From Acidilobaceae archaeon (lineage in GTDB: Archaea; Thermoproteota; Thermoprotei_A; Sulfolobales; Acidilobaceae), in assembly GCA_038824665.1 (NCBI GenBank), contig JAWBBK010000002.1, positions 69,483-133,482 of the forward strand: DNA of 64,000 nucleotides. The letters run 5' to 3'. Under the pieces are notes generated by a model. The model saw only the letters and a program-made list of their open reading frames with translations, did no database searches and was not told the origin of the DNA. The translations under genes and the position numbers were made by a program. Shown one piece after another: positions 9,032 to 12,419 of this stretch; the stretch's first letter is position 1, and every line of letters starts with the position of its first letter.

Positions 9032-9108
9032 GGGCCCGTAGCTCAGCCTGGCAGAGCGGCGGGCTTTTAACCCGTAGGTCCCGGGTTCAAATCCCGGCGG
9101 GCCCGCCA
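9032..9108 (+). tRNA. tRNA-Lys (TTT)
   Basis: GGGCCCG acceptor stem, GCGGG-CT-TTT-AA-CCCGT anticodon arm, GGTTCAAATCC, CCA end, no intron. Confidence 0.97.
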
Positions 9109-9196: not shown

Positions 9197-9961
9197 TTGG
9201 AGAGAGTAAGAGAGCTACTAGACGACTACGGGATCAGTCTAGTCAGAGAAGAGGCAGCTATTTACATCGCTTCAGAAGACGCAGTAGCGATCTCAGACAT
9301 ACACTTTGGCTTTGAGTCAGCTATGACAAGTCTAGGCGTAGTCCTTCCTAAAAGACAACTGAAAAGAGCTCTAGAGGTTTTAGTTAGGCTCAGAACTCTT
9401 ACAGGAGCCTCTAAGCTTATCGTTTGTGGGGATTTGAAACATGTTTTCGAGAAGTTAATTAAACAAGAACGCGAAGAAGTGTCGACATTCATTCAGAGAG
9501 CTTTCGAGCTCGGATTCAAGGAGGTCATAGTGGTTAGAGGGAATCATGACAACTACGTCTCTTCGTTAGTAAAGAAGCTAGGAGCAACATGGATTGAAAA
9601 CTATATAGAATTAGGAAAAGGGATCGTGATCACTCACGGTCATGAGGTTTACGACGTTAAGGGCGAAGCGATAGTGATGGGACATGAACATCCGGTGCTT
9701 GAAATGTCGATAGGAGGTTTCAAAGAGAGACTTCAAGCTTTTTTGATAATTCCTAGAGCTAGCTCGGGTTTTTTCATTGTGCTTCCAGCTATAGGAGAAT
9801 ACCAGTCAGGCAACGTGGTTACGCTCGATAGATCTAGATATCTTTCTCCTTGGATCCAAAAGGAGGCGCTGATAAACGAAGCGATACCCGTAGTAAGCGA
9901 TAAAGACATAGGGACTATAGCTTTACCGAAACTAGAGTTTCTCTTAACCAAAGAACTCTGA
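9197..9961 (+). CDS. Calcineurin-like metallophosphoesterase (ICC-like archaeal family)
   Basis: SDIHFG, GDLKH, GNHD, HGH, GHEHP motifs. Confidence 0.9.
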   Translation: MERVRELLDDYGISLVREEAAIYIASEDAVAISDIHFGFESAMTSLGVVLPKRQLKRALEVLVRLRTLTGASKLIVCGDLKHVFEKLIKQEREEVSTFIQRAFELGFKEVIVVRGNHDNYVSSLVKKLGATWIENYIELGKGIVITHGHEVYDVKGEAIVMGHEHPVLEMSIGGFKERLQAFLIIPRASSGFFIVLPAIGEYQSGNVVTLDRSRYLSPWIQKEALINEAIPVVSDKDIGTIALPKLEFLLTKEL

Positions 9962-9965
9962 TGCT

Positions 9966-10562
9966 CTATAAGAAGCTTTCAGATATCAGACATCCGTTCT
10001 TCTTAAGTGCATCATATATAACGTCTACAGCTTTGGATACCTCTTCTTCACGCTTAGCTCCAGTTATCACCATCTTGCCGCTACTGAATATAAGGAGAAC
10101 CACTGAGGGCTTATCCATTCTGTATATGAGTCCTGGAAACTGCTCAGGTTCATACATGCTACCGGGCAGAGCTAGAGCAGCTTTTTCTAGATCAACAAAA
10201 GTACCTAAGTCAGCTGATGCCACTATGTTCTGTATCTGTATCTGCACCCTCCCGTGAACCGGTATCCCTTTGTTCGTTAACGTCTTTATGATCTTTTTAA
10301 CAGCAAAAACCAATGTGTTTACGCTCTTAGCTCCAGTAACTACCATTTTACCTGATTTAAATATGAGGGCTGTGACTCTTGGCTGATCGAGTCTATATAT
10401 AAGTCCTGGAAACTGATCGGGGTTGTACTCCGATTCAGGAATTCTGGTCTCTATGAGATTTAGGTCTAGCGAGTGTTCGAGAATTACTGTAGCTACTATG
10501 TTTTCTATTTGACTATGAGGCTTAGGTTCTGAAGATGTTCTCTCGCCTGCAGGAAGAGTCAT
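9966..10562 (-). CDS. tbp: TATA-box binding protein
   Basis: Two repeats of NIVA...[12 protein letters not shown]...LIFxSGKMVxTGAK. Confidence 0.98.
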
Positions 10563-10748: not shown

Positions 10749-10804
10749 GGGATGAGGAAGCGGGCAGTCTGGGAGCAGGTGACCGGCTCAGACTCACGCT
10801 GACC
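10749..10804 (+). ncRNA. Box C/D methylation guide sRNA
   Basis: C ATGAGGA(10752-58), 12-nt guide, D' GGGA, C' GTGACCG, 13-nt guide, D CTGA(10799-802), GG/CC terminal pairs; C'/D' changes are compensatory. Confidence 0.75.
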
Positions 10805-10824
10805 TTGCGCTGGTGGAACTCTAA

Positions 10825-11283
10825 ATGAAGCTGAGTAGAGGAGCTTTGGTGATTCTAGATTTAGACAGATTTAAAGAGTTCAGCAAAGCCAAAGGGTTTA
10901 GCGAGTACACGCCTAACGAGATAACGGGTTTGTTATCTCATCTTGTTGATGCGTTTGTGAGAAAGTGGAATGGAGTTGTAGTCTATGGGATCGATTGGGA
11001 GAGAGGCACAGAAGAAGCCATCATCGAGATCCCTGAGGTCGAGGCAGAAGAGCTAGAACAAGACCTTATCGAGATAGCTGAAGAGGTTAGGAGAGCTGGA
11101 GCGTCTATAACTATAGTAGCTCTTACAGGATATATTTTCGGAGTTCCCGCTAGGAGCAGAAGAGAGGCTTATAGTGAAGGACTCAGAAGCTACGCTAAGA
11201 AGGTTCTAGAAAAACTCAAGAAGAGAGGCGGCGAAGTAGTTTTCATAAATGGAAGAATAGCTTGGAGAAGACCTCAAGGCTAG
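10825..11283 (+). CDS. Stand-alone GGDEF/nucleotidyl-cyclase-like small protein
   Basis: LVILDLDRFKEF resembles the GGDEF N-terminal D-x-D-x-FK motif; RGTEEAII occupies the RxGGDEFxI position. Confidence 0.6.
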   Translation: MKLSRGALVILDLDRFKEFSKAKGFSEYTPNEITGLLSHLVDAFVRKWNGVVVYGIDWERGTEEAIIEIPEVEAEELEQDLIEIAEEVRRAGASITIVALTGYIFGVPARSRREAYSEGLRSYAKKVLEKLKKRGGEVVFINGRIAWRRPQG

Positions 11284-12419
11284 GGTATTAGAAGAAGCTC
11301 TTCAACACTTAGAGAATAACCGTATTCTTTGGCTATAGCTAAAGCCTCCTCGATCTCCTTAGCGCTCAGTCTCCTAGCTATTTCTTTATATTCTTCTCTG
11401 GCTTTGGGATCAGCGAGAAGAAGATAGTCTGGATGGTATTGATCCATTAGGTTCAGCACCGCTTTTGGTATGTTTTTTGACATCCACTCTAGAACTCTTC
11501 TAGTACAACATTCAATGTGATTAGGCAGAACTAGATGTCTTACTATCATGTTTCCATCGCTTTCGTTATAAGCGATCGAAAGGTTTTTGATAACTACTTC
11601 TACATAGTTTTTACACTTAGAGAGCCTCAAGGCACAAGCGTTGTTACCGTACTTAAAGTCGGGTAACCATATATCTATTATATCAGCTATAAGCTTCATT
11701 CCCTCTTCGCTTAAATACATGTTGCTGTTCCAGAGCTGAGGCTTATTTACATCAAGATACTTGAAGCTCTCTAATATAAAAGGTATATGAGGTATAGGAT
11801 CCCCTCCTACATGGTTTATATTCCTTGCGCCTGTGAAGGCTAGTTCTTCTTGGATCTCTGCTAACTCTTCGGGAGTAACTACTATGTAGTTTTCATCTAC
11901 TCTCTGACTGATCTCCCAGTTCTGACAGAACACACATTTAAGAGGACATCCCCCATAAAATATGGTTCCGCTAGGAACTAGAGGGGCCTCCTCTCCCATA
12001 TGGTGAAAATAGCTGTAAACTATACACTCTCCTGAAACCTTGCAGACCCCTTGTCTACCTGAAGCTCTATTAGCACGACATTTCCACTCACATAAATTAC
12101 AGCTCTCTAAGGTCTTTCTAGAAATAGCTATCTTTACGTCTAAGTAGGACCGAGGAGGCACGCTCTCAGGTAGCTTTTCTCTGTTCTCTTCGATCTCCTT
12201 TAAAAACTTTTTGTACTCTATTGCAAGTCTGTCGTGAAGCCTCCAAAGGTCGTCTAACGTGAGACCCTCTTGATAGGGGTCTTCAGGACTTTCAAGCCTC
12301 TTAGCTATCCTGTATCTGGCAGGTCTTTCACCCCAAAGAACTCTGAAATACCAGCTCAACCTCTGGACTAAAGGCTTATTTCGTAAAACCCTTATTGCAT
12401 CAGGTCTGATTCTTTCCAC
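11280..12419 (-). CDS. Radical SAM protein, PflX-like
   Basis: CNLCEWKC N-terminal cluster, HxGEE, SGTIF, CPLKCVFCQN, PDFKYG, RHLVLP motifs. Confidence 0.9.
   Translation of the reverse strand: MERIRPDAIRVLRNKPLVQRLSWYFRVLWGERPARYRIAKRLESPEDPYQEGLTLDDLWRLHDRLAIEYKKFLKEIEENREKLPESVPPRSYLDVKIAISRKTLESCNLCEWKCRANRASGRQGVCKVSGECIVYSYFHHMGEEAPLVPSGTIFYGGCPLKCVFCQNWEISQRVDENYIVVTPEELAEIQEELAFTGARNINHVGGDPIPHIPFILESFKYLDVNKPQLWNSNMYLSEEGMKLIADIIDIWLPDFKYGNNACALRLSKCKNYVEVVIKNLSIAYNESDGNMIVRHLVLPNHIECCTRRVLEWMSKNIPKAVLNLMDQYHPDYLLLADPKAREEYKEIARRLSAKEIEEALAIAKEYGYSLSVEELLLIP

Follow-up and report, generated by a model that had tools for sequence, protein, structure and literature searches.

A conserved stand-alone palm protein related to GGDEF domains in Thermoproteota and Asgard archaea, a candidate minimal nucleotidyl cyclase or oligomerase

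Diguanylate cyclases of the GGDEF type bind metal through aspartate, read guanine through an asparagine and an aspartate, and hold phosphate through a lysine; degenerate GGDEF domains commonly serve as receptors. We describe here a small archaeal gene whose product belongs to the same palm superfamily and carries neither a sensor domain nor the usual guanine-reading residues. The gene lies in a 64,000-nucleotide stretch (hereafter "the window") of contig JAWBBK010000002.1 from an Acidilobaceae archaeon (assembly GCA_038824665.1, positions 69,483 to 133,482). The source genome is 83% complete and consists of 10 contigs, and results reported below as negative for this genome have that scope. According to passages of a 2023 review, cyclic di-GMP (c-di-GMP) has not been detected in archaea, nearly all diguanylate cyclases are bacterial, and crenarchaeota lack diadenylate cyclases (PMC10249747). 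A second point of comparison is the mCpol enzyme OptS. Parts of its published description report a protein of ~14 kDa which synthesizes 2',3'-c-di-AMP constitutively with Asp6 and Asp57 as catalytic residues, forms a dimer of dimers in the crystal, and reads the base through Ser30 and Asn34, the substitution N31S in a homolog shifting the product ratio (PMC12657218).

A minimal palm family and its relation to GGDEF domains

The open reading frame (ORF) of the palm protein (Table 1) begins at an ATG directly preceded by an in-frame TAA. Two motifs first drew attention to it: LVILDLDRFKEF, which forms residues 8-19, and RGTEEAII, which forms residues 60-67 and begins 48 residues past D12. Pfam and NCBIfam scans of the protein found no domain anywhere, hence no sensor domain, and the best NCBIfam match is the diguanylate cyclase SiaD with an E-value of 0.2. 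The original prediction, made from the letters of the window, had described a 152-residue protein carrying both motifs and no sensor domain; the ORF list, the sequence and the domain scans all agree with this description.

The protein is not isolated. A word-indexed search returned 81 homologs of 113-196 residues, and those with a name all come from metagenome-assembled genomes (MAGs) or isolates of Desulfurococcales, Acidilobaceae or "Thermoprotei", the closest named relatives being Acidilobaceae and Desulfurococcales MAGs, in keeping with a Thermoproteota origin of the window. Thermosphaera aggregans Tagg_0217 and a protein of Staphylothermus hellenicus are among the named homologs from cultured strains. 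Most of them are annotated as hypothetical, and a few sources label them "GGDEF domain-containing". When 1.84 billion representative proteins were scanned exhaustively with HMMER, only 40 clusters appeared at E<=1e-3, of which 25 at E<=1e-10. A profile of 15 members, the most distant ones, recovered 71 proteins from a 5.8-billion-sequence database, and those with a name belong to Asgard archaea (Odinarchaeota, Helarchaeota, Hodarchaeales, Promethearchaeia and "Asgard group"); one look-alike cluster in the Atlas likewise has Promethearchaeota as its commonest phylum. Within the phylum of the window, 35 of the 401 sampled genomes carry the gene, always as a single match per genome: 22 are other genomes of the window's order, and 12 are spread over five other families. 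In the same sample no carrier was found among the 15 genomes of one family of the same order (family f4) nor among the 56 genomes of family f10.

Conservation was examined on an alignment of 62 sequences that are 24-78% identical to the window protein. Nine positions are invariant (D12, D14, N31, G55, G61, T62, E63, E64 and K132), and eleven others are at least 90% conserved (L13, G24, Y28, P30, T34, L37, L56, R60, A124, L128 and G136). The acidic residues are thus conserved in 62 of 62 sequences, together with the counterpart of the phosphate-binding lysine, which bears out the proposal that the metal-binding acids are retained. As judged from this alignment, the family is real and conserved, and its motifs are not due to chance. 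All members are single-domain proteins with one exception, P0112 (292 residues), in which the palm domain is preceded by a Toprim domain of the small archaeal kind (PRK04017 / RNase M5-like). This fusion was found once, on a single 6.4-kb contig; it is one of 17 matches, the other 16 being Toprim-only, and since it is a singleton we give it little weight. Among these Toprim-only matches, some carry the name of dTMP kinase or are joined to one. In the source genome, no small Toprim protein of the PRK04017 kind was seen.

Profile searches point to GGDEF domains as the nearest sequence relatives of the family. Against the PDB, the profile of the 62 sequences gave 23 matches at E<=1, distributed as follows: 16 are GGDEF proteins (best match 3ign, E-value 1.4e-5), and the remaining 7 are de novo designed proteins. 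The profile of the 15 distant members gave 16 PDB matches at E<=0.1, all of them GGDEF domains aligned in full-length register. In these alignments "llDLDnFkeivkkkG" is paired with "mIDIDKFKNINDTYGH", "rGTEEalllf" with "fGGEEFVILF", "tlSiGva" with "TFSGGVA", and "klAkkalrkAKkkggntiv" with KIADKNLYEAKSSGRNQII. The same distant-member profile matches a true PF00990 protein in the 5.8-billion-sequence database (E-value 7e-7), and hhalign of the family profile with this protein gave 88.4% and an E-value of 2.8e-6 over 132 columns. The likeness to GGDEF domains on which the original prediction was built is supported by the PDB profile searches, the PF00990 protein match and hhalign.

The pairing makes it possible to list what the family shares with GGDEF domains and what differs. 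Kept are the D-x-D-x-F of strand beta1 (D12, D14 and F16), the acidic pair of the signature (E63 and E64), the glycine found 12 residues past the first aspartate (G24), and the C-terminal helix with its phosphate-binding lysine (K132); also shared are the S-I-G of strand beta4, in the distant subfamily, and the A..AL..AK..G.N pattern of the C-terminal helix. The signature itself reads G-T-E-E, invariant and followed by alanine, in place of the G-G-(D/E)-E-F of GGDEF domains. The column of the guanine-binding asparagine is variable in the palm family ("NDTYGHE--IGD" compared to "vkkkGwteYsPN"). The column of the guanine-binding aspartate, located with the "GHE--IGD" alignment, is occupied by the invariant N31, which is part of a Y-x-P-N-x-x-T motif with a two-residue insertion. 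The alignment is hence in line with the further proposal that the specificity residues have changed: the positions which bind guanine in diguanylate cyclases are altered here. The helix bearing P30-T34 is the one that carries base-contacting residues in both GGDEF and mCpol enzymes.

AlphaFold2, run with the 62-sequence alignment, produced a model with a pLDDT of 95.6 and a pTM of 0.90, whose palm core is predicted as beta-alpha-alpha-beta-beta-alpha-beta. Foldseek found 101 PDB matches to this model at E<=0.001, led by class III adenylyl cyclases (4wp3_D, E-value 1.1e-5), GGDEF domains and Csm1. Pairwise comparison of folds (score, then deviation and aligned positions where given) gave the following: Cmr2 palm, 9l7d_B (12.4; 3.1; 131), Rv1900c cyclase (12.3; 2.8; 131), GGDEF domain 3ign (12.0; 2.8; 122), GGDEF domain 5euh (11.8), DosC, at 25% identity (11.7), mCpol OptS, 9mnr_A (11.7; 2.9; 114 of 119), N-terminal domain of GTP cyclohydrolase III (GCH III), 2qv6_A (10.6) and a Y-family polymerase palm (10.2). 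Thg1 is not among the 50 matches listed in the structure comparisons, which does not exclude a fold relation to it. The predicted fold is a cyclase-type palm, in accordance with what had been expected from the motifs; by itself, this fold assigns no family.

Table 1. Coordinates of the palm ORF, its motifs and the adjacent features in the window
Feature	Position	Strand	Basis
Stand-alone GGDEF-superfamily palm protein ORF	10825..11283	+	ATG start, 152 residues, stop codon included
D12-L13-D14, strand beta1, counterpart of the D-x-D of GGDEF "DIDxFK"; putative metal ligand	10858..10866	+	Invariant in 62/62; aligned to DIDKF of DgcR and DosC; D12 codon 10858-10860, D14 codon 10864-10866
P30-N31-E32-I33-T34, family-specific helix motif; possible base contact	10912..10926	+	N31 invariant, P30 and T34 at least 90% (62-sequence alignment)
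R60-G61-T62-E63-E64, counterpart of the GG(D/E)EF signature; E63 putative second metal ligand	11002..11016	+	G61, T62, E63 and E64 invariant; "rGTEEalllf" aligned to "fGGEEFVILF"
C-terminal helix A124...K132-K133-R134-G135-G136, counterpart of GGDEF "A..AL..AK..GRN"; K132 putative triphosphate ligand	11194..11232	+	K132 invariant; alignment
C/D box small RNA, directly upstream of the palm ORF, same strand	10749..10805	+	Model match G000:C2:80231-80287
C box of the small RNA, ATGAGGA	10752-10758	+	Sequence
D box of the small RNA, CTGA	10799-10802	+	Sequence
TATA-binding protein (TBP) gene, most often conserved neighbour (context only)	9966..10562	-	TBP identified by domain scan
Metallophosphoesterase, SbcD-related / PdeM-like (context only)	9197..9961	+	PF00149; TIGR00024 120.5 bits (cut-off 115.2)

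Proposed activity of the palm protein

From the fold, homology, conservation, distribution and context described in this work we infer an activity, an oligomeric state, a product and a role. The reading that we prefer, and to which we give about an even chance, takes the ORF product for a minimal and active nucleotidyl cyclase or oligomerase, a stand-alone member of the GGDEF / Cas10 / mCpol palm superfamily. In the mechanism that we propose, two divalent metal ions would be bound by D12 together with D14 (strand beta1) and by E63 together with E64 (beta2-beta3 hairpin), and K132 with the neighbouring basic residues would hold the triphosphate of a nucleoside triphosphate (NTP). A second protein copy would bind another nucleotide, whose 2'- or 3'-hydroxyl would then attack the alpha-phosphate with release of pyrophosphate; the resulting di- or oligonucleotide would be linear or cyclic. 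The enzyme would probably be dimeric and unregulated; a two-copy homodimer prediction scored 0.00 against a mark of 0.42, which is no evidence either way. Because P-N-x-x-T takes the place of the guanine-reading residues and the signature has become G-T-E-E, the product is probably not canonical c-di-GMP. The lack of a sensor, of an I-site and of a defence context suggests that the enzyme is likely constitutive, or controlled at the level of expression. Its role in hyperthermophilic Thermoproteota and in Asgard archaea is likely to be one of housekeeping or signalling, rather than defence.

Several observations weigh against such an activity. The window protein has no PF00990 match at E<=10, and no Pfam model reached its cut-off in the family: PF00990 appears below threshold in 7 of 17 distant members, with a best score of 23.7 bits for a cut-off of 23.8. 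The second glycine of the GGDEF signature is replaced by an invariant threonine and the arginine of "GRN" by a glycine, and either change could impair catalysis of the GGDEF type. No receptor, effector, EAL or PilZ match was found in the source genome. The neighbouring genes, surveyed at 60, 11 and 75 loci in three sets, vary with the lineage and are mostly housekeeping genes, and a PADLOC scan matched no defence family. Finally, a homolog (36% identity) of the PHP phosphoesterase that is paired with the palm gene in some lineages (see below) is also present in the source genome, unlinked and on another contig. On the side of domain models, PF00990 is likewise unmatched by 27 close members at E<=1 and has no match in the source genome, and PF22335 (Cas10 palm2) gives sub-threshold matches in 2 of the 17 distant members.

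Among the alternatives, other NTP-consuming chemistry survives best, although we regard it as unlikely: the protein would be a GCH III-like hydrolase, a GdpP-type ATPase, or a transferase of nucleotides to a non-nucleotide acceptor in metabolism. Such chemistry would fit a housekeeping context with no receptor, and the altered GTEE signature is compatible with it. It also finds an echo in domain searches, where PF24898 (GGDEF_GdpP) appears below threshold in 8 of the 17 distant members (best E-value 2.4e-4), and in the Atlas, where look-alikes include GdpP-type and short GCH_III-type clusters (0.90-0.91). However, the GdpP matches all stay under the 30-bit cut-off, and no sequence relation to GCH III was found: PF05165 is unmatched by the window protein, by 27 members at E<=1 and by 17 members at E<=0.1. 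Described GCH III (PF05165; MJ0145, 2qv6) has two domains in ~250 residues, compared to one domain of 152 residues here, and the GGDN motif is absent from the palm protein. The source genome already encodes a true and full-length GCH III of 252 residues, on another contig beside a riboflavin-synthase-like gene, and hhalign of the palm family to this protein gave 2.8%. That the ORF might be a fragment of GCH III, an assignment the original prediction had left open, is ruled out on these grounds.

Gene neighbourhood and the upstream C/D box small RNA

In the window, a TBP gene separates the palm ORF from a metallophosphoesterase gene (Table 1). In Desulfurococcales, TBP lies within ~0.6-0.9 kb of the palm gene at 40-41 of 59-60 loci, in three orientations: TBP> sRNA> palm>, where sRNA denotes the small RNA discussed below; <TBP sRNA> palm>, which is the arrangement of the window; and palm> <sRNA <TBP. 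The original prediction had noted the metallophosphoesterase two genes away as a possible degrading partner. The gene is indeed there, but the functional link is weak: it occurs within the fetched flank at 29-30 of 59-60 Desulfurococcales loci and at 8 of 75 metagenome loci, both it and TBP are absent at all 11 loci from other Thermoproteota families, and its family (SbcD-related / PdeM-like) is not a known cyclic-nucleotide phosphodiesterase family. Other genes of the window, i.e. those for a radical SAM protein, phosphoenolpyruvate synthase and methionyl-tRNA synthetase, are common to only the 3-4 closest relatives. The radical SAM gene (379 codons, 11280-12419, minus strand) is convergent with the palm gene, with a 4-nt overlap at the stop codon of the latter, and is shared by the 4 closest loci only; its product has only weak similarity to AmmeMemoRadiSam and glycyl-radical activases. 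A tRNA gene (9032-9105, plus strand; Rfam RF00005, 71.9 bits) is located between a thioredoxin-like ORF and the metallophosphoesterase gene.

The 75 metagenome loci, 74 of which contain the palm ORF and 42 of which span at least 6 kb, fall into lineage-specific blocks. At 12 loci, genes for GDH, UPF0047 and a radical SAM protein precede the palm gene, which is followed by a winged helix-turn-helix (wHTH) DUF4443 gene, an unknown 272-residue protein and, on the opposite strand, a soluble pyrophosphatase. The wHTH-DUF4443 protein (212 residues) is encoded on the same strand, 13 nt 3' of the palm gene in L150, the sole locus where this gap was checked; DUF4443 was not found in the source genome. 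The loci of this lineage are L146-L150, L154, L160, L162-L164, L167, L169 and L203. About 12 further loci show <RsmB/F and palm>, then <H+-pyrophosphatase and <class I lysyl-tRNA synthetase, and another ~12 show GPN, DUF2070 and TBP ahead of palm>, then <M48 peptidase. In a block of 9 loci, the palm gene is immediately followed, on its own strand, by the gene of a small PHP phosphoesterase (PHP and PHP_C domains). One further family has a protein with four CBS domains 3' of the palm gene, and a divergent reverse gyrase.

The strongest hint of a functional partner is the pair formed by palm> and PHP, with PHP as a candidate degrading partner. Genome G172 has the pair as well, with a 4-nt overlap between its genes, and the two sub-lineages in which the pair occurs have palm proteins of only 36-47% mutual identity. 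The PHP neighbour is a CehA/McbA-like metallohydrolase with weak similarity to 3',5'-bisphosphate nucleotidase and to RNase RNM. Palm-PHP loci are L092, L135, L142, L143, L166, L184, L187, L189, L194 and L205. As seen above, a soluble pyrophosphatase or an H+-pyrophosphatase is found near the palm gene in two other lineages. This recurrence of phosphoesterases and pyrophosphatases would fit an enzyme of nucleotide turnover, and it is suggestive only, since the partners are non-orthologous and mostly housekeeping. Given that neighbours vary between lineages and are mostly housekeeping genes, the context gives no firm partner. A role in a defence system was considered and rejected: no PADLOC family was matched and no effector is encoded nearby. 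PADLOC returned two weak CARF matches (E-values 0.005 and 0.026), both of them to palm proteins.

Directly upstream of the palm ORF we identified a C/D box small RNA (sRNA), which precedes the palm gene in 43 of the 61 sequences compared (60 loci plus the window, one spurious regex match being excluded). An alignment of 31 of these sRNAs shows the C, D', C' and D boxes in order, with the invariant pattern UGA..GA / ..GA / UGA / C.GA; no Rfam family matched at E<=1. A sequence-only covariance model gave a single match for the sRNA in each of 90 genomes out of 101 in the order, and none in the 10 genomes of family f4. In five genomes, the palm gene and the sRNA are tens to hundreds of kb apart. 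The sRNA gene is widely conserved and independent of the palm gene, so its adjacency to the latter is a matter of synteny and not proof of a shared function.

Initial searches for a target of the sRNA, in the partial rRNAs of the source genome (whose 16S is truncated), in the 16S of three relatives and in 37 tRNAs, found none. The D' guide is complementary to the A-loop of 23S rRNA, in helix 92 (GGCUGCCCG). The guide A located five nt upstream of D' (N+5) faces a U of this segment, the equivalent of E. coli U2552. A second genome shows a compensatory change, C to U in the 23S target and G to A in the guide. From this pairing, the sRNA is predicted to guide a modification of the 2'-O-methylation type in the 23S A-loop. 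Compared to two relatives, the 23S gene of the source genome contains a 44-nt insertion exactly within the guide-paired A-loop (GGGCU / 44 nt / GCCCGCC; contig C6 of G000, locus L110, reverse strand, ~2341-2390 of the reverse complement). The insertion is probably a mini-intron, and since it splits the target, the latter would exist only after its removal.

The sRNA also accounts for an annotation artefact. Apparent N-terminal extensions of many database homologs are the sRNA read in different frames (MKWNEELNAQSD, MMKWAAMDPSRDEEPSLTL and DEEPSLTL), as observed at loci L011-L059 and in proteins such as P0023, P0062 and P0065. At 21 of the 43 loci, the only in-frame starts upstream of strand beta1 fall inside the sRNA. 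In the window the D box is separated from the palm ATG by 22 nt, and because of this short distance the sRNA and the palm mRNA probably share one transcript.

These neighbours bear on two other readings of the palm protein. In the first, which we hold to be quite improbable, the protein would be an RNA-directed nucleotidyltransferase that repairs RNA ends or extends them with nucleotides, and would act in RNA processing and not in signalling. RNA and translation genes are indeed frequent at the loci: besides the sRNA, the divergent RsmB/F methyltransferase and the class I lysyl-tRNA synthetase, they include arcTGT, Lsm, TRAM and the methionyl-tRNA synthetase of the window, and the Toprim domain fused to the palm in P0112 is of an RNase M5-like type. 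The sRNA is nevertheless independent of the palm gene, as shown by its genomic distribution, the fusion is a single sequence on one short contig, and sequence profiles favour GGDEF, not Thg1 or polymerases. The second, a catalytically inactive nucleotide-binding or regulatory protein, i.e. a degenerate GGDEF receptor or adaptor acting perhaps with transcription factors, would be consistent with the GG-to-GT and GRN-to-GGN changes, with the frequent adjacency of TBP and with the wHTH-DUF4443 gene being the next same-strand gene at 12 of 12 loci of its lineage, but it is very improbable: both acidic pairs and the lysine are strictly invariant across Thermoproteota and Asgard archaea, as a catalyst would show, whereas degenerate receptors usually lose them, and the RxxD I-site of GGDEF receptor domains is absent.

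Returning to the active cyclase or oligomerase, a more elaborate version can be formulated which we put forward tentatively and consider doubtful as a whole: the protein would be the first housekeeping archaeal (cyclic) di- or oligonucleotide synthase of the GGDEF superfamily, common to hyperthermophilic Thermoproteota and Asgard archaea. Its messenger would differ from c-di-GMP, and would be sensed through transcription proteins encoded nearby (TBP, wHTH-DUF4443) and degraded by the neighbouring PHP phosphoesterases or metallophosphoesterases.

Comparison with known palm enzymes

Part of what is reported here was already known, namely the fold and the superfamily, and some pipelines label homologs "GGDEF domain-containing". 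What is new is a family that, as far as its sequences indicate, stands outside every Pfam model, is distinguished by the invariant G-T-E-E and the P-N-x-x-T motif, and is restricted to Thermoproteota and Asgard archaea. A literature search on archaeal GGDEF and mCpol-like proteins found no publication on this family. A conserved, single-copy family that looks catalytically intact would offer a concrete, easily expressed candidate of ~150 residues for a new archaeal nucleotide product, and it may represent a minimal form of the palm from which GGDEF and Cas10 enzymes were elaborated.

Compared to GGDEF diguanylate cyclases (PF00990; e.g. DosC 4zve, DgcR 6zxb and 3ign), the palm protein has neither a sensor nor a dimerisation domain, lacks the RxxD I-site upstream of the signature, and is archaeal and single copy; the first ~30 positions of the Pfam model have no counterpart in the family. 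It differs from Cas10 / Cmr2 in that it is not part of a multidomain Cas10 protein, has no CRISPR context, and carries GTEE instead of GGDD. Class III cyclases (PF00211; e.g. Ma1120, Rv1900c) are 8-16% identical to it and none is present among the 23 PDB profile matches, and the AK..G.N motif of its C-terminal helix is GGDEF-like, not cyclase-like.

The mCpol enzyme OptS of Panoptes (PF18182; 9mnr) provides a precedent for a stand-alone palm that is active and synthesizes a cyclic dinucleotide constitutively. Both proteins are stand-alone palms of ~120-150 residues with no regulatory domain, and the model superposes on OptS as a stand-alone minimal palm. The catalytic acids are 51 residues apart in each case (Asp6 and Asp57 in OptS, D12 and E63 here), and the intervening helix that carries the base residues Ser30 and Asn34 in OptS carries here the invariant N31 and the near-invariant T34. 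The Atlas feature similarity of 0.92 to mCpol is a lead only. On the other hand, sequence identity is 9%, and PF18182 is unmatched by the window protein, by the 27 close members and by the 17 distant members. The palm loci contain no adjacent 2TM-beta-barrel or CARF effector gene and no defence context, and the palm family is archaeal and vertically conserved, whereas mCpol is a bacterial defence-island gene. The likeness to mCpol is one of kind, not of family.

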